Shown piece after piece: positions 37,844 to 63,765 of a DNA stretch of 64,000 nucleotides. A program made the translations under genes and the position numbers. Position 1 is the stretch's first letter. Each line of letters starts with the position of its first letter. The stretch is from IMG/VR virus record IMGVR_UViG_3300010167_000022; one strand, given 5' to 3'. The notes below the pieces were generated by a model that ran no database searches, was not told where the DNA came from, and saw only the letters and a list, made by a program, of their open reading frames with translations. Origin of the DNA: a virus.

Positions 37844-37871
37844 TTTTAATAGAAGAAATATTCTATTAAAA
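37844..37871. promoter_or_regulatory. PeSL-like palindromic intergenic element
   Basis: ttttaatagaagaaatattctattaaaa. Confidence 0.55.
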
Positions 37872-37875
37872 TATT

Positions 37876-38109
37876 TTAATTATTTAACCACTCATATATA
37901 TCTTTAATAAATACTTTATCATCTTTATTATCATTATATTTAGTGAATGATGAATAAATTGTTGCACCAAAAAGAATAACTGCTATAACTTCATCGTCAA
38001 AACTAACTGTTGGATACTCACTGCTATTATCATCAAAAAATTCTTCTAGTGAATGCCAGACATTACATCTAATCTCTTTATCATAATCTTTTGATATTAT
38101 TTTTAACAT
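37876..38109 (-). CDS. hypothetical protein
   Basis: ORF 77 aa. Confidence 0.45.
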   Translation of the reverse strand: MLKIISKDYDKEIRCNVWHSLEEFFDDNSSEYPTVSFDDEVIAVILFGATIYSSFTKYNDNKDDKVFIKDIYEWLNN

Positions 38110-38146
38110 CTAATCATCCTTATAATATAATTTATGATTCTACTTA

Positions 38147-38413
38147 TTAATTATATCTATCGTATTTCTTTTTTATAATATCAACATATATTTTTATTTT
38201 ATGAGAGCATAATAATACTAATTCACTAAATATATAACAAATATACAAAAGCCAAACTAATGGAAAAATTATTGTTAATGCTACTATAATAATAGCGTTA
38301 TTAACATAGTCGTCGTCTTTATTAAAAATCTTTACCCCATTTGAATCTTTTGCAAAAGATATAAATAACATAGCCGTAATAAATCCTAACAATAAATATA
38401 AAAACATCTTCAT
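38147..38413 (-). CDS. small membrane protein
   Basis: ORF 88 aa, two hydrophobic helices. Confidence 0.45.
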   Translation of the reverse strand: MKMFLYLLLGFITAMLFISFAKDSNGVKIFNKDDDYVNNAIIIVALTIIFPLVWLLYICYIFSELVLLCSHKIKIYVDIIKKKYDRYN

Positions 38414-38474
38414 ATACTCCTTATCTAAACCTTATTTATAAATGTATTAATGCTTGCTCCGTTTTTAATATTAT

Positions 38475-38753
38475 CTACAACGCACGTTTAGTATATCCTA
38501 CGCCATTAATTTTAAGATAATCTTCTAATTCATTCCTTCCTATATCATCAATACTAAAGCATTTACTGCAGAAGTAGTGGCAAATAATATTATCACAAAC
38601 ATTCTGCAACCCCTTCCAGCTATTTATGTTATTAATTACATTCCACATTGTTTTCAGTTTCACTTTATTATGACATTTCTCACATCGTTTAGACAACAAA
38701 ATGAACTTTGAAGAGATTTTAAAATAAAGAAAATAATATATATATCTTTTCAT
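38475..38753 (-). CDS. Cys-rich small protein (start moved to the internal ATG, MKRYIYY...)
   Basis: the track ORF overlaps the upstream gene by 58 nt; the internal ATG avoids the overlap. Confidence 0.4.
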   Translation of the reverse strand: MKRYIYYFLYFKISSKFILLSKRCEKCHNKVKLKTMWNVINNINSWKGLQNVCDNIICHYFCSKCFSIDDIGRNELEDYLKINGVGYTKRAL

Positions 38754-38769
38754 ATTATATACCTTCCAT

Positions 38770-39357
38770 TTATAATAAATCAAAAATCCCGTCTCCACAA
38801 TCTTCATTCCACTGCATAATGAATTCATATGTGAATGTATCGCTTAGATTGTTATAAATATCTATAACTGTCCATCCATCATCTATAAGCCTAAATATAT
38901 ATTCTGTCACATTATTTACAATCAACTCATCAAATGATATATTAATTATTGATTCTTTTTCTTTTTCTTTTTCTTGTATGCTTCTTTCTTCTATTTCTAT
39001 CGCTTCTTTAGAAGCAATAGTTTCGCTTTCGATTATTTCAGCAACAATTTTTAATAGGTCATCTTTTGATAAATTATTAGAATATAAAAACTTGCAATCT
39101 GTAAATGTTATGTTGTTGATAAGATGAATAGAATAATAATATTCACTTGGTTCTAAATCCCATTTTTCTTCAGTTATATGTAGTGAAGCTTTATTCCCAT
39201 TTTTGTCTTCTAAGAATAAACAATAGTCCCCTGCACATCTATCCCCATTATCATTTGTTTCTCCATCTTTTTCAAGTCTTTCTAACAGCATATTAGTTAA
39301 TATTCCTGGTTGTACAATAGTTTTAAACATATATTCACCTAATTTCAGAATTCTCAA
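38770..39357 (-). CDS. acidic hypothetical protein
   Basis: ORF 195 aa. Confidence 0.5.
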   Translation of the reverse strand: MRILKLGEYMFKTIVQPGILTNMLLERLEKDGETNDNGDRCAGDYCLFLEDKNGNKASLHITEEKWDLEPSEYYYSIHLINNITFTDCKFLYSNNLSKDDLLKIVAEIIESETIASKEAIEIEERSIQEKEKEKESIINISFDELIVNNVTEYIFRLIDDGWTVIDIYNNLSDTFTYEFIMQWNEDCGDGIFDLL

Positions 39358-40291
39358 TTAAAACTAGTTTCCAATCTCCGCTATGATAGATTGTTTTTGT
39401 ACGACTGTCTTTTATTACAGCATTATCACACAGTATAATACTATCTTGTTTTATACCTTTTGAGAACAAATTATTTTGTATTGACACAATTGAGCTATCT
39501 CTCATCTCTCTTACAGTCGAGCTACCCCACATCTCTCTTATATTTGAACTTCCACTCATCACTCCTACAATTGAGCTTTCCCACATCGTTTCTACGGTTG
39601 AGTTATCACACATCAGACGCACAGTTGAGCTATCTCTCATATCTCTAACAGTTGATCCTTGCAACATCTTTTCTACAATTGATCTTTGCCTCATCACTCC
39701 TACAGTTGAGCTATCCCACATCTTTTCTACAATTGAGCTATCATTCATCTCTCTTATATTTGAGCTATCCCACATCTCTCTTACAGTTGAGCTATCACAC
39801 ATCTCTCTTATATTTGAGCTATCCCACATCACTCCTACAGTTGAGCTATCACACATCTTTTCTACAATTGTGCTATCACACATCAGACGCACAGTTGAGC
39901 TTTTCAACATTGCAATATTTACATTGCCTGTCAATATAATATCGTTACAATCTTTTAAATAATAATTAGCTCCTGTTGACAATTCTAATCCGTCAACACC
40001 AATATAAATACGGGATTTAGCCCATTCTTTTACTGCAGTGATCATGCGTTCTTTTTCATAATCTTTAACAAACCAGTCAGGCACTATATCTTGGTTAACA
40101 TTAAATCTCCATGTAGCAATATCAGAAAAGACATTATTGTCTTGTGGAATAAGTTCTACACGTACAAAAATAGGCTTAGTATTTTCGGGATTGCCATCTA
40201 TATTTAATTCTTTAAACATATCTGCATAATTGTCGTAGTCTGGTATAAAAACTCTATCCTTTAAAATAATTCCACTTTTAAACAAATACAT
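39335..40291 (-). CDS. tandem 8-residue-repeat protein (about 18 units of xDSSTVxEM); start at MYLFKSG after an AAAAGGGG RBS
   Basis: 24-bp DNA repeats 39480-39915, in frame; the track's first 22 codons read through the upstream palindrome. Confidence 0.55.
   Translation of the reverse strand: MYLFKSGIILKDRVFIPDYDNYADMFKELNIDGNPENTKPIFVRVELIPQDNNVFSDIATWRFNVNQDIVPDWFVKDYEKERMITAVKEWAKSRIYIGVDGLELSTGANYYLKDCNDIILTGNVNIAMLKSSTVRLMCDSTIVEKMCDSSTVGVMWDSSNIREMCDSSTVREMWDSSNIREMNDSSIVEKMWDSSTVGVMRQRSIVEKMLQGSTVRDMRDSSTVRLMCDNSTVETMWESSIVGVMSGSSNIREMWGSSTVREMRDSSIVSIQNNLFSKGIKQDSIILCDNAVIKDSRTKTIYHSGDWKLVLIENSEIR
39480..39915. repeat. imperfect 24-bp tandem repeat array, about 18 units, coding
   Basis: units such as tacagttgagctatcacacatctc; no unique spacers. 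Confidence 0.7.
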
Positions 40292-40330
40292 ATAAATAAC
40301 CCCTTTTATTATAATATTTTTATTTTTTAA

Positions 40331-40358
40331 TTTGAATAGAATGCGTCTTCTATTCAAA
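40331..40358. promoter_or_regulatory. PeSL-like palindromic intergenic element
   Basis: tttgaatagaatgcgtcttctattcaaa. Confidence 0.55.
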
Positions 40359-40443
40359 TTTTTATGTATATTTATACATTATTCAATACTTTATACATTA
40401 ATTATACATCAAAAATGTATAATTATACACTGTTTTATAACTG

Positions 40444-40743
40444 CTAAACGCGATTTTCTGTATCCCATATATTTATCTCTTTTTCTTTTTGAACACGGCA
40501 AGAGCATAAGACTTGTTCAAACATTGCTTCTGTGAACCACATATCTATATGGCGTATCCTGTACATCATTACATTGGAATAATCATTCCGACAACGATCA
40601 ATAATTTCTCCACTACGCCCACCATAATGAACATGGGCACCTTGAGCATTAATTCCACCATAAAATTCATGTTCAATTAAATCTTTTCTTACTATTGCCA
40701 ATTTACCAATAAGTGTATCTCGCAATGCTATCAAATCCTTCAC
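40444..40743 (-). CDS. hypothetical protein
   Basis: ORF 99 aa. Confidence 0.45.
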   Translation of the reverse strand: MKDLIALRDTLIGKLAIVRKDLIEHEFYGGINAQGAHVHYGGRSGEIIDRCRNDYSNVMMYRIRHIDMWFTEAMFEQVLCSCRVQKEKEINIWDTENRV

Positions 40744-40853
40744 AGAATATATTTTCGCAAATTTGATTATATTTTATCACTAAAAATATATGAATAGAAA
40801 TAATATTCTAGTGAACTACCATACGCAGCTTTTATTTCAAATTATAATTAATT

Positions 40854-41171
40854 CTAATAATCATCTGCAATATTAATAAACTCATCGCAAGGGTCATACC
40901 CCTCGAAAATAATATTAAATATCTCTTCTAATAGCTGTCCCCATACAGGATTCTCTTCGTTATCAGGAGAGCCGCTATTCATCATACTTACAACCCATTC
41001 AGCAAACTCTTTTCTTTTCCCAGGAATTACTTTTGCAAATAGTTTGTCATCTTCAATATTATTAGGGCTATTATGAAATAACCATACTAAATCCTTTAGT
41101 GTGATTTCCATTTTTAGTTTATCATTTGTTACTTTAAATTTCATAATTTGGTTATTGGCTTCTATTGCCAT
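40854..41171 (-). CDS. hypothetical protein
   Basis: ORF 105 aa; GGAGGA RBS. Confidence 0.5.
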   Translation of the reverse strand: MAIEANNQIMKFKVTNDKLKMEITLKDLVWLFHNSPNNIEDDKLFAKVIPGKRKEFAEWVVSMMNSGSPDNEENPVWGQLLEEIFNIIFEGYDPCDEFINIADDY

Positions 41172-41191
41172 TATAATTCCTCCTCAAAATA

Positions 41192-41219
41192 TTTAAATAG
41201 AAATGATCTTCTATTAAAA
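41192..41219. promoter_or_regulatory. PeSL-like palindromic intergenic element
   Basis: tttaaatagaaatgatcttctattaaaa. Confidence 0.55.
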
Positions 41220-41241
41220 CTATAAATTGATATAATAAATA

Positions 41242-41667
41242 TTAACACTCTAATATAAAATGCATATATTCTCCCATGTGAGAATGGATTTCTCGTTCTA
41301 AGTCATAACCGCCAATATGGAATGTTTCTAAGCAATACCCAGTAATAGCATATTCTGAATATCCAGTTAGTCTTATATCTGTTTCGATATCGCCTTCTAA
41401 TTTACATATCAATGAACCAACTGCTTCATCTAATGTAGATTTATGATTAGTAAAGTAAATTCGAAGACTGGCATCATAGATATATGACATTTCACCACCT
41501 AGTCCATCCTTAATTCCTTTTACACTTCCATTATCATATGCAAAATTATGAACTAATTTAGGTATAGAGTTAGCTTCACATAATTTCACTTTTCTATTTG
41601 TTTCATCAACTGAAATAACACCGCAGTCATCAGTTACAACAAAACCATTAATATATAATTCAGCCAT
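41242..41667 (-). CDS. hypothetical protein
   Basis: ORF 141 aa. Confidence 0.5.
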   Translation of the reverse strand: MAELYINGFVVTDDCGVISVDETNRKVKLCEANSIPKLVHNFAYDNGSVKGIKDGLGGEMSYIYDASLRIYFTNHKSTLDEAVGSLICKLEGDIETDIRLTGYSEYAITGYCLETFHIGGYDLEREIHSHMGEYMHFILEC

Positions 41668-41692
41668 TTTAATAAGCTCCTTTAAATATAAT

Positions 41693-41719
41693 TTTTAATA
41701 GAAGCATACTTCTATTAAG
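41693..41719. promoter_or_regulatory. PeSL-like palindromic intergenic element
   Basis: ttttaatagaagcatacttctattaag. Confidence 0.55.
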
Positions 41720-41767
41720 ATACTTCATAGCGCATATTCATACACAATCTATTATTTTATGTTAATA

Positions 41768-42193
41768 CTAGTTAAAATCAGATTGTTCTAATATTTTCGT
41801 TTGTATAAGATGAACAAATTTATATTCCTGCGAAGCTAAACTATCGTTAATTAAACTATTATATCCAGATAATGCATCGTCATAATTATCGCCATAGTCT
41901 TCTTCAATATATTCTCCATATTCTTTATCTTCTGACACAACAGAATAGCTAACATTATTTTCTATTTCTTGATTTGGATAATTGGGATAGTTAGAAGGTT
42001 TTTCTATGTATATAGCCGCCCAATGTGTAACCCCATTCATCTTAACATCACTTCTTACATCAATCCAGTGAGAAATTCCTACTTTATGGTACTTATTAAA
42101 TGTCCAAACATAACTTACAATATTATTTACATCTTCTGTTCCTGGCATTCTATCATTACATTTAATCCAATTAACATACATATTACCACTCAT
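41768..42193 (-). CDS. hypothetical protein
   Basis: ORF 141 aa. Confidence 0.5.
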   Translation of the reverse strand: MSGNMYVNWIKCNDRMPGTEDVNNIVSYVWTFNKYHKVGISHWIDVRSDVKMNGVTHWAAIYIEKPSNYPNYPNQEIENNVSYSVVSEDKEYGEYIEEDYGDNYDDALSGYNSLINDSLASQEYKFVHLIQTKILEQSDFN

Positions 42194-42206
42194 CTCTTAT
42201 TATTAT

Positions 42207-42386
42207 TTACTCGTTATCTTTTTGTTCGTACTCTAATATACGTTCCGCTGCATCAAAAATAAAATTTTTAATATCTTCGTGTGCAAAAATCATATATGCT
42301 TTATAAAAGCCATCCCCTAAAAATATTTCTAAATGACCGTCTTTATCTCTTCGTACAATTTTTTCTTTTATCATATTATTATCCAT
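42207..42386 (-). CDS. small hypothetical protein, about 59 aa
   Basis: manual: GGAGATG RBS then ATGGATAATAATATG...; not in track. Confidence 0.35.
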   Translation of the reverse strand: MDNNMIKEKIVRRDKDGHLEIFLGDGFYKAYMIFAHEDIKNFIFDAAERILEYEQKDNE

Positions 42387-42405
42387 ATTATCATCTCCTT
42401 ATAAT

Positions 42406-42858
42406 CTATTTATATAATTTTTTATATCTTGTAATGCGATTTTTAATATCATCTATTGCTATACGTTGAAAATTTTTTATTTTAAAATCATCTTTTAATG
42501 ATGAATTAAAATATGTTTCAAGCAATATATCATTATAAATATATCCGCCTACAGTATAAAATTTTATTCCACTAATGTCAATCTGCATATATGTAATATC
42601 ATGCTCATCAACTAGTGCAAATGCAGTAATCAAGTCATGTTCATATTTTCCAAATACAATATTTTCATCTGTACTAATATTATTAAATCCATCTAACTCA
42701 TTAATCAATCCATCTATTTTCCAATATCTATTTTTAATTCTAAAAATAGTTCCTCTACAAGTTAGAAAGTCAATTCCTTTATATGTTGTATCATTGCCAT
42801 TATTATTTAATAATCTATCTTTATTAAAGATAAGAACTCCATAATCTGCTCCAGCCAT
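42406..42858 (-). CDS. hypothetical protein
   Basis: ORF 150 aa. Confidence 0.5.
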   Translation of the reverse strand: MAGADYGVLIFNKDRLLNNNGNDTTYKGIDFLTCRGTIFRIKNRYWKIDGLINELDGFNNISTDENIVFGKYEHDLITAFALVDEHDITYMQIDISGIKFYTVGGYIYNDILLETYFNSSLKDDFKIKNFQRIAIDDIKNRITRYKKLYK

Positions 42859-42891
42859 TAATTATCATCTCCTTAAATTATTATTTAATAT

Positions 42892-43188
42892 TTATATTAT
42901 TAATTCTGTAATAACCCAAGCATCTGAACAATTATGACTAATATCAGACCATGCAAAATCATTTGATAAACCCCAAAAATCTCCTTCTTCATAATCATCT
43001 AGCGTACATTCTTCAAATTTACCTGTAACATCATTATATGCATTACATACACTTGCATTTAATTTATTAACCATTTCATTATATGCAGATGTATAGTCTG
43101 TATATATCTCACTATATATATTCCATCCTACAGAATGTGAAATTGTAGTTAACATATATCTTTTATTTGGATCAATATTTATAATCAT
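42892..43188 (-). CDS. hypothetical protein (start at MIINIDPNK after a GGAGATGG RBS)
   Basis: the track's N-terminal extension lacks an RBS. Confidence 0.45.
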   Translation of the reverse strand: MIINIDPNKRYMLTTISHSVGWNIYSEIYTDYTSAYNEMVNKLNASVCNAYNDVTGKFEECTLDDYEEGDFWGLSNDFAWSDISHNCSDAWVITELII

Positions 43189-43210
43189 ATAGCCATCTCC
43201 ATAAATTTGC

Positions 43211-43312
43211 TTATTTAATAAATAATAAATATAGTATACCAAAAATAATATATCCCAAAATAAGCTGTCCTAATATACAAGATAATACGAATAATATTTT
43301 GTTTTTCACCAT
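43211..43312 (-). CDS. small membrane peptide, about 33 aa
   Basis: manual: MVKNKILFVLSCILGQLILGYIIFGILYLLFIK. Confidence 0.25.
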   Translation of the reverse strand: MVKNKILFVLSCILGQLILGYIIFGILYLLFIK

Positions 43313-43349
43313 CGTTCACCTACGCATTCTTTTTATTATTAATAATTTG

Positions 43350-43583
43350 TTATCCAAAATACCTATGCATAACATTACTATTTGTATAATGCTTTGCCCA
43401 ATATGGTTCTGGTTTTATTTTAGAGGATGCATTATTAATCATTTGATAAAACACCTTATCACTATGCCCTGAACTTCTATTATAAATAATACAAGTATAT
43501 TTATCTACTATCATTGTATTAAAATCTTCGTTTCCAGTTGATATAACATTATAATTTCTAATAAATTTTGACATAATAAACAC
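43350..43583 (-). CDS. hypothetical protein
   Basis: ORF 77 aa. Confidence 0.45.
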   Translation of the reverse strand: MFIMSKFIRNYNVISTGNEDFNTMIVDKYTCIIYNRSSGHSDKVFYQMINNASSKIKPEPYWAKHYTNSNVMHRYFG

Positions 43584-43607
43584 TCCTATTATTAATTATC
43601 ACAAAAG

Positions 43608-43636
43608 TTTTCATAGAATAATGATTCTATTTAAAT
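43608..43636. promoter_or_regulatory. PeSL-like palindromic intergenic element
   Basis: ttttcatagaataatgattctatttaaat. Confidence 0.5.
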
Positions 43637-43657
43637 ATAATACAACATAATCTTAAT

Positions 43658-44344
43658 TTATTCCGCTAACTTTCTATCTATGAGTGAACTAATATCATTT
43701 AAAACAATATCATATTCATCGCTGCTTGTATTAATATAACCATTAATTCCATTATTAATTAATTCTTTCATTGCTGAAACTGAATCATTTTTTGTTAGAA
43801 TTATAAAATATGAATATGAAAATATTTTTTGCAACCTACTTATTAATAATAAAATATAATTAGTTACATCATTAATATTTATCAAAATGAAATCAAAATC
43901 ACAAATTTCACTTGGCAAATTATCTACATCTCTTAAATCTATAACGCTTGTATGTATATTTTTATTTTTCATCATATTGACAATATCTTGTCTCAATATT
44001 CTACTATCACAAAACATATCGTCTATATACAAGATTCTATTATCACAATTATCAAAAGTTACTTCATTGCGTTGCCAAATTGATTTAATTCTACTTTCAC
44101 ATGTTTTTAATATATCATTATCTGTACATGGAATATATACTTCCATTATATCATATAAATTATTTGAATGATTACACATATTTTCAGAATAAGAACATGG
44201 GACGTTAAATCCTCCTCCATTAAAATTTGCCAATATAAAATTAAGTTTACCATATTTTTCGGTAATATAGTTTTCAATTACTAAATACATATTATTATTT
44301 CTTGTTCTTACTCTCATTCCAGACTTTAAATCATACAAATTCAT
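43658..44344 (-). CDS. hypothetical protein
   Basis: ORF 228 aa. Confidence 0.5.
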   Translation of the reverse strand: MNLYDLKSGMRVRTRNNNMYLVIENYITEKYGKLNFILANFNGGGFNVPCSYSENMCNHSNNLYDIMEVYIPCTDNDILKTCESRIKSIWQRNEVTFDNCDNRILYIDDMFCDSRILRQDIVNMMKNKNIHTSVIDLRDVDNLPSEICDFDFILININDVTNYILLLISRLQKIFSYSYFIILTKNDSVSAMKELINNGINGYINTSSDEYDIVLNDISSLIDRKLAE

Positions 44345-44354
44345 GCAATCGCCC

Positions 44355-44948: not shown

Positions 44949-44970
44949 TCCTTATATATGTTATAAAATA

Positions 44971-44998
44971 TTTTAATAGAAACTTAGTTCTATTCAAA
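44971..44998. promoter_or_regulatory. PeSL-like palindromic intergenic element
   Basis: ttttaatagaaacttagttctattcaaa. Confidence 0.55.
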
Positions 44999-45229: not shown

Positions 45230-45278
45230 TTTTATTCTCCTTTTTTATGATAAAATAAATTGCTAATTAATATTTATA

Positions 45279-45497: not shown

Positions 45498-45615
45498 TAA
45501 TGTACCCCTATCTAATATTTATTATTAATAATATCATAGATAAATAATAATTGCAATACTTATTATTATAACAATCAGCACACCCCATTTTAATCAAATA
45601 GCAGTTCTATTTAGA

Positions 45616-48084: not shown

Positions 48085-48112
48085 TTTGAATAGAAATTCA
48101 ATTCTATTTAAA
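48085..48112. promoter_or_regulatory. PeSL-like palindromic intergenic element
   Basis: tttgaatagaaattcaattctatttaaa. Confidence 0.55.
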
Positions 48113-49266: not shown

Positions 49267-49293
49267 TTTGAATAGAATAACGGTTCTATTCAC
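49267..49293. promoter_or_regulatory. PeSL-like palindromic intergenic element
   Basis: tttgaatagaataacggttctattcac. Confidence 0.5.
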
Positions 49294-49318
49294 TATATTA
49301 CTTATTTTCGCGCAGATA

Positions 49319-51624: not shown

Positions 51625-51652
51625 TTTTGATAGAATGAGAGTTCTATTAAAA
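51625..51652. promoter_or_regulatory. PeSL-like palindromic intergenic element
   Basis: ttttgatagaatgagagttctattaaaa. Confidence 0.55.
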
Positions 51653-52021: not shown

Positions 52022-52077
52022 ATAAGTCCCTCCAATCTTCATCAAATGGAATTTCTATTAAAATATTTTATTAAAAA

Positions 52078-52601: not shown

Positions 52602-52831
52602 ACATCTTATATCATCATCGGGTTTTAAATTTCAATTCTTGATAGAATATATTGTTTTGCATTCTTCGAATATTCTAATAGATTGTCTCGCAATGATTCT
52701 GCTTCTTCTTTCTTTGCTGAATATGTATACATAAAATTCCATTCATTAGAACTATTTAATTTATAACGCACACACCATTTTTAATATCATATTTCCAAAC
52801 TTCAAACATATTAGTTGTCACCCACGTATAT

Positions 52832-53838: not shown

Positions 53839-53866
53839 TTTTAATAGAAGTATTATTCTATTGAAA
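53839..53866. promoter_or_regulatory. PeSL-like palindromic intergenic element
   Basis: ttttaatagaagtattattctattgaaa. Confidence 0.55.
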
Positions 53867-54164: not shown

Positions 54165-54182
54165 TCATATCACCTCATATTT

Positions 54183-54206
54183 ATATAGAATTACAATTCT
54201 ATTTAA
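54183..54206. promoter_or_regulatory. PeSL-like palindromic intergenic element (short copy)
   Basis: atatagaattacaattctatttaa. Confidence 0.45.
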
Positions 54207-54218
54207 TTGTATGCTTGT

Positions 54219-55331: not shown

Positions 55332-55381
55332 AATAAAAAACTCCCTTTACTTATATAATTTGTTTGATATGAATACATTTT

Positions 55382-55666
55382 CTATTTAAAATTTTGACTA
55401 AAAACATGATGCTTAATTAGATTTATTTCATACAAGTCAATTACAATAAATTCATCACCATGAATATTAGTTAGCTGTTCTATCCAATTATTTGCTGAAT
55501 CAATAGTTTTAGTAAACATCACTTCGTTTTCACCATTATTTAATCTGTATACAAATACAAATGGGAATTCTGGTTTAACAAAATCATTTTTATATTTAGC
55601 ATTTGAATGCTTTTCGATTTCACTAAAATCTCTAGGTGATTTTATAGAATGCCATGAACCTAACAT
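55382..55666 (-). CDS. hypothetical protein
   Basis: ORF 94 aa. Confidence 0.5.
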   Translation of the reverse strand: MLGSWHSIKSPRDFSEIEKHSNAKYKNDFVKPEFPFVFVYRLNNGENEVMFTKTIDSANNWIEQLTNIHGDEFIVIDLYEINLIKHHVFSQNFK

Positions 55667-55771: not shown

Positions 55772-55798
55772 GTAAGATTATTCAGTGATAGGATTAGA

Positions 55799-56854: not shown

Positions 56855-57164
56855 ATCCTCCAGTTACTCTTTTAATATTTTTGTTTTTTAAATACAAATT
56901 CCAATTATTCAATGCACAAGTTGTAATTAGTAATAATATTATAAAATGTAATATTAAATTTGAAGCCTTGATAATATTAATATTATTACTAAGTTCTACT
57001 ACCAACATTCCAACATTACCTTGAAAATATGAGAAGTTAACATCAGTCTTTATTGCAATAACAACGCTATTAATAATATTTCTAAATAAAACAAATGAAA
57101 ATAATGTTACAACCATTCCTAAAATTGATGTTATGCATAATAATAAGTTCTTATTGACTTGCAT
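56832..57164 (-). CDS. membrane protein
   Basis: ORF 110 aa with multiple TM helices; overlaps the downstream gene by 23 nt. Confidence 0.45.
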   Translation of the reverse strand: MQVNKNLLLCITSILGMVVTLFSFVLFRNIINSVVIAIKTDVNFSYFQGNVGMLVVELSNNINIIKASNLILHFIILLLITTCALNNWNLYLKNKNIKRVTGGFENDKNN

Positions 57165-57230
57165 ATCTTTTCACCACTCCCACTCCCACACCTAAATGAG
57201 TTAGCTTTTCGAGCATTCATTATAACTATA

Positions 57231-57668
57231 CTATACTTCTTCAATCAATAAGCATATTGATGATCGCAAATATGAGTTCAACATTTCATCAATCTGATAA
57301 TAATCATATAATTTAATTATATCAACACAATCCGCGATTTTTTTATCATATACAATATAATTATACATACCTGCGCGGAAATCTTTTTTCAAAATAAATG
57401 AAACAACTGTTTCTTTGTTAAGCATATTTCTAACTTGCAAAACGGTTGGTTTCGCGTTATAGTCTTTACATAATTCATTCATTTTTTCATTATACTTTTC
57501 GGCATCATATTTTGTTTCAAAATCAGCAATCCACTGTTGTTCACCCAAAGAATATGCATCGCGTGTATAATAAATACTCCAAAAATCTGCATCGTTATCT
57601 GCTACCATTGATACTTCATTATTACCTAAATCAATACATCCATTCATGGTATAATAATCTTTTTTCAT
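57231..57668 (-). CDS. hypothetical protein
   Basis: ORF 145 aa. Confidence 0.5.
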   Translation of the reverse strand: MKKDYYTMNGCIDLGNNEVSMVADNDADFWSIYYTRDAYSLGEQQWIADFETKYDAEKYNEKMNELCKDYNAKPTVLQVRNMLNKETVVSFILKKDFRAGMYNYIVYDKKIADCVDIIKLYDYYQIDEMLNSYLRSSICLLIEEV

Positions 57669-57748
57669 TTTGCATTCTCCTTTTATTTATATTTTGAATA
57701 GAAAATTCAACACCTTATTAAAATTATAATAACATATATATTTTTAAA

Positions 57749-57776
57749 TTTCAATAGAAGATGATTTCTATTTAAA
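57749..57776. promoter_or_regulatory. PeSL-like palindromic intergenic element
   Basis: tttcaatagaagatgatttctatttaaa. Confidence 0.55.
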
Positions 57777-58107
57777 TATTAATCTCATTACTATGCTTAT
57801 AACATCTGCGCCAGCTATCAGATATTGTGCTATGCATGACTTTCTGCATAATTTTTAGGTCGTCATATCCAACAATATTTATCAGTTCGTTTAGTAGGCT
57901 CGCATATTCTTCTGGCTTAGCCTTAACTGTATTTTCTAGATAATACGAATAACTTGCTTCATTATGCTGACCGCAATGTTCATAACATAATATTCTATCA
58001 TAGGCAACTTCCTCTCCAGGAAAGAAAGCTACAATTCCATCGCCTGCTAATTTTTTATAGTCCTTGTGCTTTCTAAATATAACCTTAGTCATAATCCAAC
58101 ACCTCAT
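57772..58107 (-). CDS. hypothetical protein
   Basis: ORF 111 aa. Confidence 0.5.
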   Translation of the reverse strand: MRCWIMTKVIFRKHKDYKKLAGDGIVAFFPGEEVAYDRILCYEHCGQHNEASYSYYLENTVKAKPEEYASLLNELINIVGYDDLKIMQKVMHSTISDSWRRCYKHSNEINI

Positions 58108-58112
58108 TATTT

Positions 58113-58574
58113 TTAAAACTTATACTTTGAGAAGTTATAACCTTTATCAATTAAAATCATTAATTCATCTTGCGTTGCATTAAATATAAATAACATATCT
58201 TGGCTGTTAATTCCAATTAGAGAACATTTATTGTTATCATTAGCCAACGATACATAATTATTTGTAATATCATAAATATTATAAACATAATCTTTCTCAA
58301 AATTTTCATCTGATTTTTTTGAAATAGCAATATTATATCGTTTATTGTCTGCCATTTCCACTATATCAAACATCTCATCATTAAAAGACCAATTATCATT
58401 ATCTTCTAAAACATGATATATAGTATCTAGATGTTCAACACTAGAAATTGTTAATACCTTATTCTTTAACTTGTTCATTTTAGAACCAAAATACAATTTC
58501 CCCCTACCATAAAAATTATGTGGAACAATATCATCTTTAATTTTTACCTTGTCTCCAAATTTAAATATTGGCAT
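58113..58574 (-). CDS. hypothetical protein
   Basis: ORF 153 aa. Confidence 0.5.
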   Translation of the reverse strand: MPIFKFGDKVKIKDDIVPHNFYGRGKLYFGSKMNKLKNKVLTISSVEHLDTIYHVLEDNDNWSFNDEMFDIVEMADNKRYNIAISKKSDENFEKDYVYNIYDITNNYVSLANDNNKCSLIGINSQDMLFIFNATQDELMILIDKGYNFSKYKF

Positions 58575-58605
58575 ATAATACTCTCCTTTTATTTTTTACA
58601 AATAT

Positions 58606-58633
58606 TTTAATAAAAGAGTGTTTCTATTTAAAT
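58606..58633. promoter_or_regulatory. PeSL-like palindromic intergenic element
   Basis: ttttaataaaagagtgtttctatttaaa. Confidence 0.55.
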
Positions 58634-58914
58634 TATTTCTGAATCTCTCCGCTGACATGAACAAGTATTTTCCCGTTATCAGCAACTCCTACTGTTTTAT
58701 AATCAATCCAATGCAAATCATATTCATTATCAATTAATTTATCTGATAAAAAATCAATACAATCCTCAAATTCCAATTGAACTAAATCGGCAATCCATAC
58801 AGCCACAACACCTTCTACTATATCGCCACATTCCATTTTTTCAATTTCATCATTTGGTATAGGCGAATCTAATACAATATATTCTTTGTTAATAAACTTA
58901 AACATATATATCAC
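58633..58914 (-). CDS. hypothetical protein (GTG start)
   Basis: ORF 93 aa; 4-nt overlap with the upstream gene. Confidence 0.45.
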   Translation of the reverse strand: MIYMFKFINKEYIVLDSPIPNDEIEKMECGDIVEGVVAVWIADLVQLEFEDCIDFLSDKLIDNEYDLHWIDYKTVGVADNGKILVHVSGEIQK

Positions 58915-59282
58915 TCCTTATTAATATATCTATAAATAAAGTCTACAGCTTGCGCCTCAGTTATGACTGTTTCTTCTAACTCATAATCACCAAATCCTGT
59001 GCATTCGAATATACATTCAGCAATAACTCCGTTTGAGCATTTTTTATATTCTTTAATTAGTTCATCTAATGACTCATAATATCCAACTACATATGATTCA
59101 ATTTCTTCTTCGCTGTATTCTTCAATGTCAATTGTGTCGGCAACTATTGTCCATGTGTTGTTTGAAATCTCTATTACCTGTATCATTGCGAAAACAGTTG
59201 CACTTAGCTTTTTTTGATACTGATAATCGCTTGCGTCAGTACAAGTCCATCCGTTCATATAGTTTTTTAATAAATTAATCAT
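58911..59282 (-). CDS. hypothetical protein
   Basis: ORF 123 aa. Confidence 0.5.
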   Translation of the reverse strand: MINLLKNYMNGWTCTDASDYQYQKKLSATVFAMIQVIEISNNTWTIVADTIDIEEYSEEEIESYVVGYYESLDELIKEYKKCSNGVIAECIFECTGFGDYELEETVITEAQAVDFIYRYINKE

Positions 59283-59297
59283 AGTACTACCCCATAT

Positions 59298-59325
59298 TTT
59301 AATAGAACAGAGTTTCTATTTAAAC
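59298..59325. promoter_or_regulatory. PeSL-like palindromic intergenic element
   Basis: ttttaatagaacagagtttctatttaaa. Confidence 0.55.
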
Positions 59326-59327
59326 TT

Positions 59328-59696
59328 TTAATATTCTTCTTTACACTTACCATTATTAAACACCCATTTCCATATCTCACCATTTTCACCTTCCATCTTG
59401 ATATATGAATCGTTCTCAACGGCAGGTGCTATTGCGTTAAAAATTTGCTCATCTTCACCTAGTTTATCTCCAGTAAATTCAATAGAGACAATATTACCAT
59501 CATTGTCTTCCTCAACGATCCAGCGGCACTCCTCGATAGCATCAGTTAAGTTATCTGCATGCATTACCATACTTGGTATTACCCAATACATACGTTCTTT
59601 ATCTTCCACGAACTTTTTTAGAAGTGCCAATGCCTTGTCTTTATTTGCACTAATGATTTTAAAACTACTATCTTGCATATACATGCAATAACCCAT
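59328..59696 (-). CDS. hypothetical protein
   Basis: ORF 122 aa. Confidence 0.5.
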   Translation of the reverse strand: MGYCMYMQDSSFKIISANKDKALALLKKFVEDKERMYWVIPSMVMHADNLTDAIEECRWIVEEDNDGNIVSIEFTGDKLGEDEQIFNAIAPAVENDSYIKMEGENGEIWKWVFNNGKCKEEY

Positions 59697-59733
59697 AATC
59701 GTTACCTCCAGCGTTGGTCGCTACCAGTTATAT

Positions 59734-59761
59734 TTTAATAAAACGTAGTTTCTATTTAAAT
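59734..59761. promoter_or_regulatory. PeSL-like palindromic intergenic element
   Basis: ttttaataaaacgtagtttctatttaaa. Confidence 0.55.
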
Positions 59762-59937
59762 TCTATATCTTTATCCATATCATTTTCATCAAGTTCAAGT
59801 GCATTAACTAATTCTTGCTTTGACTCTATTGGATATGGTGTATTCAGCGACCATCCTAAATCAATAGCAAAAATATCTGCTTGTGAATTCTCAATAGCTG
59901 ATAGTATATGAGACACAGCCACCCCATTTTGAATCAT
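59752..59937 (-). CDS. hypothetical protein; the open frame continues upstream to about 60067 with a GAGGTG RBS but only non-ATG (ATT/ATA) candidate starts
   Basis: track ORF 61 aa from the first ATG; upstream in-frame sequence is IIKIREALNDDTISF... Confidence 0.4.
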   Translation of the reverse strand: MIQNGVAVSHILSAIENSQADIFAIDLGWSLNTPYPIESKQELVNALELDENDMDKDIEFK

Positions 59938-60084
59938 TTCTATAATATATTGTTCTATAATGTCTCTGCTATTAATACCATCTAAATATCCTGTTTCAGT
60001 TTGGTTTATAGCATTGAAAAAATCTATAAAACTAATAGTATCATCATTTAATGCTTCACGTATCTTAATAATTACACCTCAATA

Positions 60085-60357
60085 CTATACTCTAATATTT
60101 AGCAATTCAATATGCACATCTCTTAGCTCATATCGAGTGTCATCAATAATTAAATATGTTCTATTTTTTACCTTCTTAATAATTCCATCAATACTACCAG
60201 TCATAGGAAGACCATGACTAAGGAATTTCCATGTGTTACTACATTTTGTATCAATCTCCATATAATATTTGTTATACTCATTTGTGCCTTTTAGTTTATC
60301 GCTTGCTTCACGGATTTTATTAATTTCACTAGCCGATATAGTTTTCATACATATCAC
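60085..60357 (-). CDS. hypothetical protein
   Basis: ORF 90 aa. Confidence 0.45.
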   Translation of the reverse strand: MICMKTISASEINKIREASDKLKGTNEYNKYYMEIDTKCSNTWKFLSHGLPMTGSIDGIIKKVKNRTYLIIDDTRYELRDVHIELLNIRV

Positions 60358-60377
60358 TCCAATTATTTTTTTTGCTA

Positions 60378-60725
60378 TTATTCAATAATATAATATCCTG
60401 CTTTAGCCATAAATCTTTTCGCATCACTCCAACTACATATTCCATCCATTCTATTATCTGCATTCCCTAAACATACAAGTTTATCCCATGTAGTATTTTC
60501 TAATCTCCAACTACCATATCTAAGACAAAAACGATAGGAATAACCATTAATATCATGAAACATAAATACAGACGGGCATCCATCGCATATCCTCTTTACA
60601 TAGCCACAAATATAAATTTCATCATTTGAATCTCTTATATTACTTGAATCTTTTATATTCGCTAGAAACAGCGTTATTATATCATCTTTATTCATTTGTT
60701 CTAAAAATTCTCTTGAATACATTTT
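60378..60725 (-). CDS. hypothetical protein (start at MYSREFLEQ after a GGAGG RBS)
   Basis: the track's extension overlaps the upstream gene. Confidence 0.5.
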   Translation of the reverse strand, partial: KMYSREFLEQMNKDDIITLFLANIKDSSNIRDSNDEIYICGYVKRICDGCPSVFMFHDINGYSYRFCLRYGSWRLENTTWDKLVCLGNADNRMDGICSWSDAKRFMAKAGYYIIE

Positions 60726-60760
60726 AAACCTCCATTTGTTATATTTTATTATATATATTT

Positions 60761-61051
60761 TTACACATGAAATGCAATAACACCATTTATTAATACTGGG
60801 AGCGATATATGATAATACCAATCGTATCCAGAATCTTTCATAATTGCTTCTACAATGTCACATAAATCATCTTTGTCGCTATCGTTATCATATTCAATTA
60901 TATGCTTATTTCTATTTATAACTTCGCGCATAGTATCATACACTGACGATACATTGGCATTTACTCTTACCCATATGTGGCAGAACCCATCATCTTCATA
61001 TTCATAAGTGCTTTTAAATATGAATCCTATAAGTATTAATTGATCGTCCAT
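60761..61051 (-). CDS. hypothetical protein
   Basis: ORF 96 aa. Confidence 0.45.
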   Translation of the reverse strand: MDDQLILIGFIFKSTYEYEDDGFCHIWVRVNANVSSVYDTMREVINRNKHIIEYDNDSDKDDLCDIVEAIMKDSGYDWYYHISLPVLINGVIAFHV

Positions 61052-61070
61052 ATTTACCTCACATTATATA

Positions 61071-61742
61071 CTATGCTGTTCTATATCCTACGCCGCTTTT
61101 AGTCTTAGACTCGATAATTTTCCCATCTGCTAATAACGCAATAAATAATTCATTGATATACAGCAATTCTATGTCGCTACTAGCCCGCCCAATATTACAG
61201 TCTATCCGTTTAACTCTGAATTTTTCTCTTATATTTTCTAGTGGCTTCCATGTTGCAGTAATATAAAGATTTTTACGCTTTGTTTTAAACTGATTGATAA
61301 TTTCATTTTCAATATCACTTTTCTTAGCCTCAAGATATGCATAATATTCTTCGTCAGACATATCATGTAGAACGCCATAGATATATGTCTCTTGATACAC
61401 AAAGAATTGTCCATTTGACAGTATTTGTTCGACTTCTTTAATTAGCCCAATTTCAACAGCTCCACCTACTTCCATCGGGTGAAGGTATAATTTGCTTTTT
61501 CCTTTAATAGCATTTGGACATGATGATGAAAATCTAGCAAGTGTTATTGTCCATCCAGCATCTATAAATATTTGTTGTATTTCTTTATTAAATCCTTCTA
61601 TAGATTCAGACGAACATCCTTGCCAACCGCTACCCCACTTATAGCCACTATCTATTCTAAAATGTACATTCCTATAATATTCCATATTATCCCAACTTTC
61701 TAATATTTTAATAGAAGACAGCTTTGATTCAAACTCAATCAC
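61071..61742 (-). CDS. hypothetical protein
   Basis: ORF 223 aa. Confidence 0.5.
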   Translation of the reverse strand: MIEFESKLSSIKILESWDNMEYYRNVHFRIDSGYKWGSGWQGCSSESIEGFNKEIQQIFIDAGWTITLARFSSSCPNAIKGKSKLYLHPMEVGGAVEIGLIKEVEQILSNGQFFVYQETYIYGVLHDMSDEEYYAYLEAKKSDIENEIINQFKTKRKNLYITATWKPLENIREKFRVKRIDCNIGRASSDIELLYINELFIALLADGKIIESKTKSGVGYRTA

Positions 61743-62160
61743 CTAGACGGAATTCAATGCTTCTCAGCAAATTATCAACAAGAGTGATATACTTTCCATC
61801 ATCAGCAGGAATATCAAAGTTATATTCTGTAGATACATCATAAATCGCATCATGTATTGAGTAGTCCGCAGTACCTTCATTGTCTAAAAGTTTATTAAAA
61901 ACTATATTACTTATGCATTCGAAGCATTGCTCATCTGTCAAAATATTGCTTGTCGGCGTTTGAACAACAATGCTATTTCCATTCATAATAAGCATTATCA
62001 AGCCAACACCAGCCCTTACAAGTGTACATTGCGAACTACTTTTTTCAAGGCAAGTCCACTTATTTCCGAGCTTGTCTATCGCTTCTGAGATTTCTAATCC
62101 AATGAGTTGACTTGCTGTATTGTTTGTCATATCGTCAGAATTACTTAAAAAATCGTTCAT
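61735..62160 (-). CDS. hypothetical protein
   Basis: ORF 141 aa; 8-nt overlap. Confidence 0.5.
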   Translation of the reverse strand: MNDFLSNSDDMTNNTASQLIGLEISEAIDKLGNKWTCLEKSSSQCTLVRAGVGLIMLIMNGNSIVVQTPTSNILTDEQCFECISNIVFNKLLDNEGTADYSIHDAIYDVSTEYNFDIPADDGKYITLVDNLLRSIEFRLGD

Positions 62161-62200
62161 ATATACACCCCATCAATTGTAATTTCTATTCAAATATAGG

Positions 62201-62440
62201 TTATGTTATTGCATAATTGATTCTATTCCCATCTTCAAACGCAACATCAAACCCAAAATATTCAAACAGTTTAGCTACATCGCTTATGCATGTTCTTGTT
62301 GATCCTGCTTTTTCATATTCGTTGGCACACATACAAAAAACATTCATATTATGTATTGTGAGTTTATGCTTTTTCATGAAGTCGCAGTTGTCTTTATTTG
62401 TGTAATCCTTTATAAGTTTGCGCCATGCTTTTTTATTCAT
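62201..62440 (-). CDS. hypothetical protein
   Basis: ORF 79 aa. Confidence 0.45.
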   Translation of the reverse strand: MNKKAWRKLIKDYTNKDNCDFMKKHKLTIHNMNVFCMCANEYEKAGSTRTCISDVAKLFEYFGFDVAFEDGNRINYAIT

Positions 62441-62454
62441 ATTGTCCCTCCAAA

Positions 62455-62482
62455 TTTTAATAGAATATACTTTCTATTCAAA
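62455..62482. promoter_or_regulatory. PeSL-like palindromic intergenic element
   Basis: ttttaatagaatatactttctattcaaa. Confidence 0.55.
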
Positions 62483-62728
62483 CTTACTATCATATTCGTT
62501 GTCATCATCTTCGCATTGAAATACAATATGATTAATATTTAATATAATATTATGTATGCTTGTTGTAGCGTCTGCTAGTTGATAACTATTTACATAGTCA
62601 AACTGTTTTCCATCAATATTTTCAAATGCAATGTCTACTAAAATTTCGAGCAATTCTTTATTTATACCTTTCATGCGTTCAATAATTTTTTCACGACTTG
62701 TTTCTTTAGCATATTCTGTTTCAGTCAT
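62474..62728 (-). CDS. hypothetical acidic protein
   Basis: ORF 84 aa. Confidence 0.45.
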   Translation of the reverse strand: MTETEYAKETSREKIIERMKGINKELLEILVDIAFENIDGKQFDYVNSYQLADATTSIHNIILNINHIVFQCEDDDNEYDSKFE

Positions 62729-62748
62729 ATTCGTTGCCTCCTAATATT

Positions 62749-62776
62749 TTTTAATAAAATGTATTTTCTATTTAAA
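62749..62776. promoter_or_regulatory. PeSL-like palindromic intergenic element
   Basis: ttttaataaaatgtattttctatttaaa. Confidence 0.55.
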
Positions 62777-62813
62777 TTCTGCTCCGTTTACAATTATATA
62801 TATAGAATTAACT

Positions 62814-62952
62814 ACTACAGAAATCCAAAACCATTCACCAAATGTTGTTTTGATGTGTCAAACATAGCAACAATAATCACATTCCAAAGAAAAAGTAGTG
62901 TTAATGGCTCAATTAATAACGCTACTAATAACCACTTCAAAAAACTAGGCAT
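62814..62952 (-). CDS. small membrane protein, about 45 aa (coordinates approximate)
   Basis: manual: GGAGCTG RBS; MPSFLKWLLVALLIEPLTLLFLWNVIIVAMF... Confidence 0.3.
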
Positions 62953-62978
62953 AATTATCAGCTCCTATTATTTGCTTA

Positions 62979-63221
62979 TTAATATTCAATTACTTCATAA
63001 AGTTCTAATATTCTCCATTCATCCTCATATAATTCTCCACTGGCTACGGCATTTCGCACATTATTTTCATTCATACCATAGAAGAATATCTGTTCATCTG
63101 AATATCCTATAGGCAAATTATGCCATGAATTGCATTCGGCAATCAAAGTATGAATTGTATCTCCTGTATCGTCTCCCCATTGAACATTAACACTAAATAG
63201 TTTCATATTAAATTCCTCCAA
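62979..63221 (-). CDS. hypothetical protein
   Basis: ORF 80 aa. Confidence 0.45.
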   Translation of the reverse strand: MEEFNMKLFSVNVQWGDDTGDTIHTLIAECNSWHNLPIGYSDEQIFFYGMNENNVRNAVASGELYEDEWRILELYEVIEY

Positions 63222-63225
63222 TATA

Positions 63226-63711
63226 CTATAATATTTTATTAAATTTTAAATGTTTCCATCCTAAATATTTGTATAACTTTTTAAATTCATTTATACTATC
63301 ACACTTATAAATATCATATTCATCATAGCGATTAATATCATCATCATTTATATTAAATTCATCTAATACATCATTAATAGTATTTAATATTCCTCTTGCA
63401 TCAATATATTTATCTTCTCTCTTTAAGAAACAATGCATCAAACAAATACGATTAATATCTTCATCATATTCAGTTACAATGATAAATATATCGCCATCTT
63501 GATATTTTTTTAATGCATATTCATCGCAACGTCCATGTAGATAATCATTATATATATCATCAACTTTAACATCTATATAACATTCACATATTGGACATAC
63601 CGCATACCAATCATATCCATAACATTTCAAGTTTACGTATTTAAACTCATAATTGCACTCATTGCATAATACTATATTATTAGAATCAGCATCAAATAAT
63701 ATATTGTTCAT
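63226..63711 (-). CDS. Cys-rich hypothetical protein (start at MNNILFD after a GAGGTG RBS)
   Basis: the track ORF begins at a TTG inside the RBS region. Confidence 0.5.
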   Translation of the reverse strand: MNNILFDADSNNIVLCNECNYEFKYVNLKCYGYDWYAVCPICECYIDVKVDDIYNDYLHGRCDEYALKKYQDGDIFIIVTEYDEDINRICLMHCFLKREDKYIDARGILNTINDVLDEFNINDDDINRYDEYDIYKCDSINEFKKLYKYLGWKHLKFNKIL

Positions 63712-63737
63712 ATTTAACCATCCACACCTCAATAAAA

Positions 63738-63765
63738 TTTTAATAGAATCGTACTTCTATTCAAA
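63738..63765. promoter_or_regulatory. PeSL-like palindromic intergenic element
   Basis: ttttaatagaatcgtacttctattcaaa. Confidence 0.55.

Follow-up and report, generated by a model that had tools for sequence, protein, structure and literature searches.

The window considered here is a stretch of 64,000 nucleotides from the IMG/VR virus record IMGVR_UViG_3300010167_000022, and it corresponds to positions 835-64834, reversed, of the 162-kb metagenomic contig ena:ERZ27257295:k141_78244, of which positions 1-73,486 were covered in the analysis. All of the window genes lie on the minus strand, the G+C content is ~29% and 83% of the window is coding; the genes include a cluster for NAD salvage as well as determinants of a CCA-adding enzyme, an RNA ligase, an FtsK-like ATPase, a tyrosine integrase and an MrpR-like protein of 343 amino acids (aa). 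The feature that concerns us most is a palindrome that recurs in the short gaps between the small early genes, a total of ~35 of which hold it (Table 1).

Read on the minus strand, the palindrome has the consensus A-TTTnAATAGAA-N6-TTCTATTnAAA-T and the core ATAGAA-N6-TTCTAT, i.e., it is a two-fold-symmetric sequence of 28-30 bp made up of 11-bp arms and a 6-bp spacer. A scan of both strands of the window with the exact pattern given in the first-pass annotation of this DNA, allowing up to 3 mismatches and using 100 dinucleotide shuffles as the control, detected 56 strand matches that represent 30 distinct sites, where 0.05 were expected and the shuffle maximum was 2. If position 4 is left free (TTTnAATAGAA-N6-TTCTATTnAAA, 20 fixed positions, the same limit on mismatches), the number of sites becomes 33, among which 13 are perfect and 8, 5 and 7 carry one, two and three mismatches, respectively. 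At 30-33 sites the repeated intergenic palindrome that had been proposed from the letters of the sequence is real; the shuffles do not approach this number, and no copy lies inside coding sequence. The spacer had been described as 5-7 nt long, but a looser search on the hexamer cores found it to be exactly 6 in every good copy, its sequence varying freely while its length is fixed. An alternative half-site, AATCAAA/TTTGATT, occurs five times (at 22960, 25681, 34237, 45588 and 61706, with a variant also at 52036), always faces a canonical AATAGAA arm, and may represent a second specificity or one lineage of copies. The degenerate copies that had been reported at 22959, 45594, 52042, 55366, 61706 and 62178 are genuine, whereas the one at 57693 is a single half-site and the one at 52628 is very weak.

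The placement of the palindrome among the genes is far from random. Stop codons set aside, none of the 33 sites overlaps coding sequence by more than 6 nt, and the probability that 30 random placements would all miss coding sequence is ~1e-23. The palindrome often supplies the preceding gene with its TAA or TAG stop codon, starting at this codon or including it; the distance from the end of the palindrome to the next start codon is 14-80 nt (somewhat broader than the 15-45 nt claimed initially), and the Shine-Dalgarno sequence can be as close as 3-4 nt. Because it sits between a stop codon and the next Shine-Dalgarno sequence, the palindrome marks the 5' edge of a cassette of one to three genes. 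Above 37.7 kb a copy is found at 19 of the 59 gene junctions, or ~1 per three genes. Copies are sparser between 6 and 35 kb, as had been noticed, but the original list for the region before 37.8 kb omitted those at 25122, 25681, 32463, 32903 and 34237; the copy at 40789 was likewise missing from it. No copy was detected in the 8.7 kb of replication genes just past the left end of the window or in the 834 nt past its right end. Paralogs among the flanked genes, which had been cited as support for recombination, are few, which makes this a weak argument: there are four two-member families, and a single pair has the palindrome upstream of both members. The gene downstream of the copy at 20921 is a paralog of the gene that follows the copy at 54180.

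Its gene content places the phage, as a distant member, among the large temperate Firmicute phages of the SPbeta/c-st group, since it combines the MrpR-like gene with a YorF-L-type replication module and with a helicase nearest to that of c-st. The 343-aa protein aligns end to end with YopR/MrpR of SPbeta at 25% identity, and is the only one of the 129 open reading frames (ORFs) called in the window to have a detectable SPbeta homolog. Within the phage collection it matches 14 Bacillus phage records, of which twelve are SPbeta-group phages, at yopR, and the remaining two are records of the B. cohnii phage vB_BcoS-136. Just outside the window there are AAA_24, YorH-like, helicase, PDDEXK and Pol III alpha genes, as in yorG-L of SPbeta, and the closest relative of this helicase is that of the Clostridium botulinum phage c-st (37.5% identity), which itself carries homologs of YopQ, YopR, YorF, YorI and YorJ. 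A megablast search against phages gave no match for the window, a PDB sequence search with the MrpR-like protein gave none either, and a word-indexed protein search with it returned almost only the query itself.

A general count of short inverted repeats brought to light a palindrome in SPbeta (AF020713), whose genome has 34 exact TAAAA-N6-TTTTA copies, 16 of them in one 50-kb stretch where 1.2 would be expected (e.g., at positions 86074, 86886, 87599, 95129, 113664, 115044, 118470 and 126703), with TYWRRATAAAA-N6-TTTTAWnnARA as the extended consensus. The early region of c-st (AP008983) has 13 copies against 2.4 expected, and the core, ATAAAA-N6-TTTTAT, is as in SPbeta. The palindromes of the window, SPbeta and c-st have in common the 11+6+11 layout, the arm pattern T-Y/T-T/W-n-A/R-A-T-A-[A/G]-A-A, a multiplicity of ~30 per genome, with copies lying in gaps between co-directional early genes, and a position just before the next Shine-Dalgarno sequence in which they often supply the upstream stop codon (TAA in SPbeta). 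In SPbeta, moreover, the outer ARA/AAA triplet is conserved in the same register and the downstream side is the better conserved one. The arms differ mainly in one core base, which is A/T in SPbeta and c-st and G/C in the window; the A-type palindrome is not enriched in the window (2 against 1.4 expected), and no G-type copy is present in the 50 kb of c-st that were scanned. The c-st palindromes also differ in being followed, after ~10-15 nt, by a second conserved motif, AATTAAATTAAA (e.g., at 29637, 30745, 34304 and 41246), and some c-st copies have longer, sequence-variable complementary outer arms, which suggests a composite stem-loop-plus-signal unit. Judged by layout and arm pattern, the palindromes of the three genomes constitute one family of intergenic palindromes that is common to SPbeta/c-st-type phages, and the system of the window is not a one-off, since the same kind of palindrome exists in both phages. 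The family appears to be undescribed so far; the part of the SPbeta literature that was consulted makes no mention of the SPbeta palindrome, and an earlier account of it, or one of SroE sites, is possible.

Scans of viral, genome and metagenome contigs with the exact pattern of the window produced single chance matches only, some of them LexA-type boxes. Several of these single-copy matches, in unrelated genomes that are richer in G+C (e.g., L013, L019, L026 and L035), read AATAGAAC-N4-GTTCTATT, and are LexA (Cheo-type) SOS boxes. The Cheo box, GAAC-N4-GTTC, is not what recurs in the window, where C at position 12 and G at position 17, the two bases that define this box, never occur together in one copy.

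The relationship between palindromes and genome mosaicism was analyzed in an alignment of the SPbeta early region, with its 27 palindromes, to phages phi3T, SPbetaL4 and SPR. Among 70 distinct boundaries of homology blocks, 14 lie within 20 nt of a palindrome centre, in comparison to 1.7% at random. Breakpoints are present in 15 of 23 palindrome-bearing gaps and in 25 of 96 gaps that lack a palindrome (odds ratio 5.3, p = 0.001), and when only gaps of at least 35 nt are considered the odds ratio is 2.9 (p = 0.046). Alignments of individual junctions revealed ~8 sites at which homology begins exactly at the palindrome, spacer included, from which it follows that at these sites the palindrome travels with the downstream gene; at ~5 sites homology stops inside the palindrome or just past its end, and in 2 cases the left arm is common while the spacer and the downstream gene are different. 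The palindromes of the SPbeta group are thus preferred crossover points for cassette exchange, and in most cases they move together with the gene that follows.

Conserved arms around a free spacer of fixed length are the expected signature of a symmetric DNA-binding protein, and we tentatively favor the interpretation that the palindrome is a duplex-DNA site, read by a putative symmetric (dimeric) protein, which heads the early-gene cassettes and serves as a crossover point. A putative dimeric, sequence-specific protein would read the 11+6+11 site as double-stranded DNA; the distance from G9 to C20 is 11 bp, or ~one helical turn. By analogy to stoperators or conserved inverted repeats (CIRs), the bound protein might act on transcription through the long co-directional arrays of early genes, as a roadblock or silencer. 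The 28-bp patch might also serve as a recombination linker between unrelated cassettes, since it is the only conserved patch between them. Among the three mechanisms that the annotation had offered, i.e., an operator for a dimeric phage regulator, a promoter for a phage-modified polymerase and an RNA processing hairpin, the operator fits best with the symmetry, the fixed but unconserved 6-bp spacer, the independence of the half-sites and the absence of covariation.

A number of observations weigh against this interpretation. Each of the four C20-to-T variants yields G.U and not A.C when read in the mRNA sense, which an RNA hairpin would tolerate; positions 26-28 are invariantly AAA, as compared with 8 changes in the TTT at positions 1-3, and 22 of 30 copies have A at position 25, a strand asymmetry that would not be expected for a purely symmetric binder. 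Some c-st copies have outer arms that are complementary but different. The enrichment of junctions is modest once gap length is controlled (p = 0.046), and pertains to SPbeta relatives rather than to this phage, while the roadblock function is pure inference. Pfam searches of all 122 ORFs of at least 45 aa turned up few possible binders of nucleic acids, namely the MrpR-like protein and the integrase, together with a single HTH_17 protein and two proteins with GmrSD_N (DUF262), and did not single out any of them. In the case of MrpR, which is SPbeta's master repressor, chromatin affinity purification with sequencing (ChAP-seq) in SPbeta gave ten peaks only, all of them at the boxes called SPBRE; SroF, the phi3T ortholog of MrpR, binds a 24-26-bp asymmetric box as a monomer (10.1101/2025.11.27.690993), which makes MrpR/SroF an unlikely binder of the palindrome. 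Finally, three other MrpR-bearing loci, one of which has a DndB-like neighbor, showed no repeated palindrome within ±10 kb.

The alternatives can be ordered, with an RNA-level role as the likeliest, dif-like site-specific recombination next and a weak promoter after that. In the first of these, which we consider unlikely, the palindrome would form an RNA hairpin 5' of each ribosome-binding site and be recognized by an RNA-binding protein or endoribonuclease, or act as a 5' stabilizer, so as to process the polycistronic early transcripts or control translation of the next gene. The gaps that hold the copies are indeed all transcribed, with a Shine-Dalgarno sequence 3-45 nt after each copy, and the predicted hairpins (-3.9 to -12.4 kcal/mol) are more stable than those of shuffled sequences (z-scores of -2 to -7). 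In the alignment of 30 copies 85.8% of cells pair, C20-to-T keeps G.U pairing on the mRNA sense in 8 copies and yields A.C in 2 only, and the different but complementary outer arms of several c-st copies are also what a hairpin would predict. There is a precedent in the Bacillus phage SP82, in which RNase III cleaves the early mRNA at conserved hairpins between cistrons. On the other hand, the folding energies given above are modest, and no measure of covariation in this alignment rises above shuffled controls. The half-sites change independently: the recurrent alternative half-site breaks two pairs and is never compensated by the opposite arm, left-arm T-to-C changes, present in 4 copies, result in C.A mismatches in which the partner A never becomes G, and position 4/25 is unpaired in 21 of the 30 copies. 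Since changes in one arm lack compensation in the other, the arms are conserved as sequence and not for base pairing. The SPbeta version, with just 5-6 A.T pairs (A.U in RNA), would not fold unaided, one SPbeta copy (site 57148) lies between divergent genes, and stems of 11-14 bp are short for RNase III.

Site-specific recombination, in which a phage or host tyrosine recombinase would attach to the arms and carry out strand exchange at the spacer, making the units mobile cassettes comparable to the pdif modules of Acinetobacter or the cassettes of integrons, is improbable in our estimation, even though the 28-bp 11+6+11 layout is that of Xer/dif-type core sites, breakpoints are enriched in palindrome-bearing gaps, and unrelated cassettes are joined within the SPbeta palindromes or at their edges, in some cases with a common left arm and different spacers. 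Candidate enzymes exist, namely the tyrosine integrase and the recombinase-fold MrpR-like protein in the window and YopP, an integrase-family protein, in SPbeta; we know of no function for YopP. Exchange by an ordinary tyrosine recombinase would nevertheless be blocked by the differing spacers, the integrase of the window does not resemble YopP, proteins of the MrpR type have no catalytic activity, palindrome-flanked paralogs within the genome are rare, and the junctions are scattered over the left edge, interior and right edge of the palindrome, as for homologous exchange at a short patch. The broader proposal that the palindromes are recombination sites of a phage-borne cassette system, in which a recombinase- or ParB-fold protein of SPbeta/c-st-type phages would bind the dif-like 11+6+11 site ahead of each small early cassette and drive the capture, loss and exchange of cassettes, seems to us slightly less probable again; if true, the system would be an integron-/pdif-like device of large temperate Firmicute phages that diversifies their anti-defence and host-takeover genes. 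Odds that are lower still attach to a weak sigma-A-type promoter, acting alone or with a phage factor, that would have TTGAAT/TTTAAA at positions 1-7, TAAAAT at 24-29 and the palindrome in its spacer. Contrary to the earlier statement that no TAnnnT hexamer occupies a fixed position, 14 of the 30 copies do have TAAAAT at 24-29, and TTnAAT lies 16-17 bp upstream of it; the bias to A at position 25 agrees with this, a promoter scan lists TTGAAT-16-TAAAAT at several copies, and SPBRE, too, is located in the spacer of a promoter. In intergenic gaps, sigma-A promoters of the consensus type lie only at positions up to 36 kb, so that promoters in the palindromes would explain transcription of the promoter-poor block from 37.8 to 64 kb, but this block does contain other promoters, at ~40.4, 45.6 and 57.7 kb, including some of the extended -10 type. 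Moreover, ~12 copies have a Shine-Dalgarno sequence within 7 nt, which a start site 7 nt past T29 would remove, five copies read TCAAAT, a -10-like hexamer is absent from this place in the SPbeta and c-st versions, and the most conserved bases, ATAGAA/TTCTAT, are not promoter elements. Our first hypothesis, that the palindrome is the operator of the MrpR/SroF-like repressor (28224-29279) and equivalent to SPBRE, has been downgraded to one that we now regard as highly improbable. It drew on the standing of this repressor as the sole window protein with an SPbeta homolog, on the multi-copy, intergenic, early-region distribution of SPBRE, and on the likeness of the half-sites (ATACAA in SPBRE, ATAGAA in the window). 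Yet SPbeta has SPBRE plus separate palindromes, with ChAP-seq peaks at SPBRE and not at the palindromes; SroF is a monomer on its asymmetric box; other MrpR-bearing loci are without palindromes; and the window has a separate, promoter-embedded box of its own.

The latter is a four-copy repeat of 33 bp (family D19) that consists of a sigma-A promoter box with a conserved spacer, TTGACAATAWACAATAGATA..TATAAT. The SPBRE/phi3TRE elements, of which there are ~10 copies, are asymmetric 15-26-bp boxes inside sigma-A promoters, and in the genome of SPbeta we found SPBRE as (TAGA)CAAATACAAAWAATATGTATATAAT, upstream of precisely the ten genes with ChAP-seq peaks. The TTGACAATAWACAATAGATA..TATAAT box resembles SPBRE in position and partly in sequence, and would be a likelier operator for the MrpR-like repressor of the window than the palindrome. 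As for the protein that might read the palindrome, one speculative candidate is the product of the DUF262 gene that adjoins the MrpR-like gene. YopQ/SroE of SPbeta is DndB-like, and DUF262 (GmrSD_N) proteins and DndB-type YopQ/SroE both belong to what we take to be one ParB-like superfamily. The window DUF262 protein and YopQ/SroE have no pairwise similarity, so that this link is a lead only. YopQ/SroE has been named as a second repressor in a recent preprint (10.1101/2025.11.27.690993). The FtsK-like protein was assumed at first to be YopQ, and the window integrase to be YopP, but both assumptions proved wrong on comparison.

Other kinds of signal were considered for the palindrome. The annotation had denied that it is an intrinsic terminator, and this is borne out: apart from a single G-C pair the stem consists of A/T and so is not rich in G+C, it is followed by AAAAT without a U tract, and a terminator scan found 1 site in 20 kb and none at the palindrome. 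The palindromes are also not promoters for an RNA polymerase of the YonO type, because YonO uses a single promoter, upstream of yonK (PMC5467207). In one case an array of promoter-like sequences is found next to a copy: three to four tandem TGTATAAT extended -10 motifs occupy window positions 40360-40443 (minus strand), just upstream of the copy at 40331, which would sit in the 5' leader of transcripts from these motifs.

Table 1. Positions of the palindrome and of other features in the window
Feature	Position	Strand	Remarks
Palindrome copy	6137..6164		3 mismatches
Palindrome copy	7978..8005		perfect
Palindrome copy	20921..20948		1 mismatch; gives upstream gene its stop codon
Palindrome copy	22960..22987		alternative half-site AATCAAA
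Palindrome copy	25122..25149		right arm TTTTATT, G.U-compatible on mRNA
Palindrome copy	25681..25708		alternative half-site TTTGATT
Palindrome copy	25945..25972		perfect
Palindrome copy	31803..31830		perfect; precedes operon with FtsK-like and MrpR-like genes
Palindrome copy	32463..32490		degenerate, 3 mismatches
Palindrome copy	32903..32930		degenerate, 3 mismatches
Palindrome copy	34237..34264		alternative half-site TTTGATT
Palindrome copy	37844..37871		perfect
Palindrome copy	40331..40358		perfect; tandem TGTATAAT extended -10 motifs upstream
Palindrome copy	40789..40816		degenerate, 3 mismatches
Palindrome copy	41192..41219		perfect
Palindrome copy	41693..41720		1 mismatch
Palindrome copy	43608..43635		1 mismatch
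Palindrome copy	44971..44998		perfect
Palindrome copy	45588..45615		alternative half-site TTTGATT; abuts stop codon of upstream gene
Palindrome copy	48085..48112		perfect
Palindrome copy	49267..49294		2 mismatches
Palindrome copy	51625..51652		1 mismatch
Palindrome copy	52036..52063		degenerate, 4 mismatches; right arm TTTGATG
Palindrome copy	53839..53866		perfect
Palindrome copy	54180..54207		2 mismatches
Palindrome copy	55363..55390		degenerate, 3 mismatches
Half-site	57693..57720		right half only (TTCTATTCAAA)
Palindrome copy	57749..57776		perfect
Palindrome copy	58605..58632		right arm TTTTATT
Palindrome copy	59297..59324		perfect; Shine-Dalgarno begins 4 nt downstream
Palindrome copy	59733..59760		right arm TTTTATT
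Palindrome copy	61706..61733		alternative half-site AATCAAA
Palindrome copy	62167..62194		degenerate: left arm perfect, right arm decayed; coordinates worked out by hand
Palindrome copy	62455..62482		perfect; Shine-Dalgarno begins 4 nt downstream
Palindrome copy	62749..62776		right arm TTTTATT
Palindrome copy	63738..63765		perfect
Promoter box, TTGACAATAWACAATAGATA family, weaker	13349..13381	-
Promoter box, TTGACAATAWACAATAGATA family	13702..13734	-
Promoter box, TTGACAATAWACAATAGATA family	26594..26626	-
Promoter box TTGACAATAWACAATAGATA..TATAAT	35763..35795	-	candidate MrpR-type operator (SPBRE analogue)
GmrSD_N/DUF262 gene, adjoins MrpR-like gene	27089..28189	-	speculative candidate binder
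MrpR/SroF (YopR)-like gene, tyrosine-recombinase-fold repressor	28224..29279	-	Pfam MrpR_N_CB match

Several other genes of the window and its relatives deserve to be recorded. The NAD-salvage cluster (8624-13279) encodes NAMPT, NAD synthase, NADAR/T4 Y00F-like, isochorismatase-family and Prs-like proteins, and the RNA-repair genes specify the CCA-adding enzyme (17138-18538) and the RNA ligase (21618-22931). A gene for 318 aa (39335-40291) contains twelve tandem 27-nt units of nine codons each (39459-39964), and thus encodes a repetitive protein. The DUF262 gene directly follows the MrpR-like gene here, while in SPbeta, c-st and locus L058 a gene for the DndB-like YopQ precedes the MrpR gene. 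Another MrpR-like gene is present in a bovine metagenome contig (L064, positions 4068-5432), where it directly follows a gene for a PemK/MazF-type toxin and precedes an ERF / PDDEXK / DnaB / primase / Pol III alpha module; in c-st, a PemK gene lies two genes before the YopQ-YopR pair.

The palindrome can be compared with several systems of dispersed sites. The stoperators of mycobacteriophage L5 (bound by gp71) and the CIRs of the Streptomyces phage phiC31 are short repressor sites, 20-35 in number, that are intergenic, lie in many cases away from promoters, and are thought to silence the prophage globally. The palindrome of the window resembles them as a dispersed, ~35-copy site in the short gaps of a temperate phage; it differs in that the L5 stoperators are 13 bp long, asymmetric and orientation-dependent and have a known binder, whereas the element described here is a 28-bp palindrome that is known from sequence alone. 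With SPBRE/phi3TRE it shares the phage group, the multiplicity of intergenic copies in the early region and the likeness of the half-sites, but those boxes, as explained above, are asymmetric and lie within promoters, while the window element is palindromic, has ~35 copies, and in most of these is followed 3-12 nt downstream by a Shine-Dalgarno sequence, leaving no room for a promoter. In T4-type phages, promoter-early/stem-loop (PeSL) units, each composed of an early sigma-70 promoter and a stem-loop, flank small early ORFs and are crossover points for shuffling. The annotation had proposed a PeSL-like shuffling cassette, and part of this holds up: the element is a repeated short intergenic unit in a plastic early region, and a crossover role is backed for its SPbeta homolog, which coincides with mosaic junctions in the SPbeta group. 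The element departs from PeSL in its composition, as no convincing promoter or terminator is found in it; it has no consistent promoter, G+C stem or U tract, is unrelated in sequence, and belongs to a phage of a Firmicute host. Xer/dif core sites and the pdif sites of Acinetobacter have 11-bp inverted arms and a 6-bp centre, 28 bp in all, and flank gene modules. The window copies have the same 28-bp 11+6+11 layout and likewise flank modules of one to three genes in different contexts, but their arms are identical (of the homodimer type), their spacers differ, and they form one array without alternating orientation.

SPbeta is a model for arbitrium signaling with MrpR/SroF and SroE repressors, and it now turns out to have a second repeated element, a palindrome distinct from SPBRE, ~30 copies of which punctuate the early region of this major model of prophage regulation. 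The botulinum-toxin phage c-st carries the same type of palindrome, and its existence in a relative as distant as the phage described here suggests a conserved genome architecture in this group of large temperate phages. If the palindrome is a dispersed operator, it would provide the lysis-lysogeny circuit with a layer that has been missing; as a crossover linker, it would explain how the hypervariable early-gene cassettes, many of which are anti-defence genes, are exchanged. Both of these ideas are directly testable in B. subtilis.

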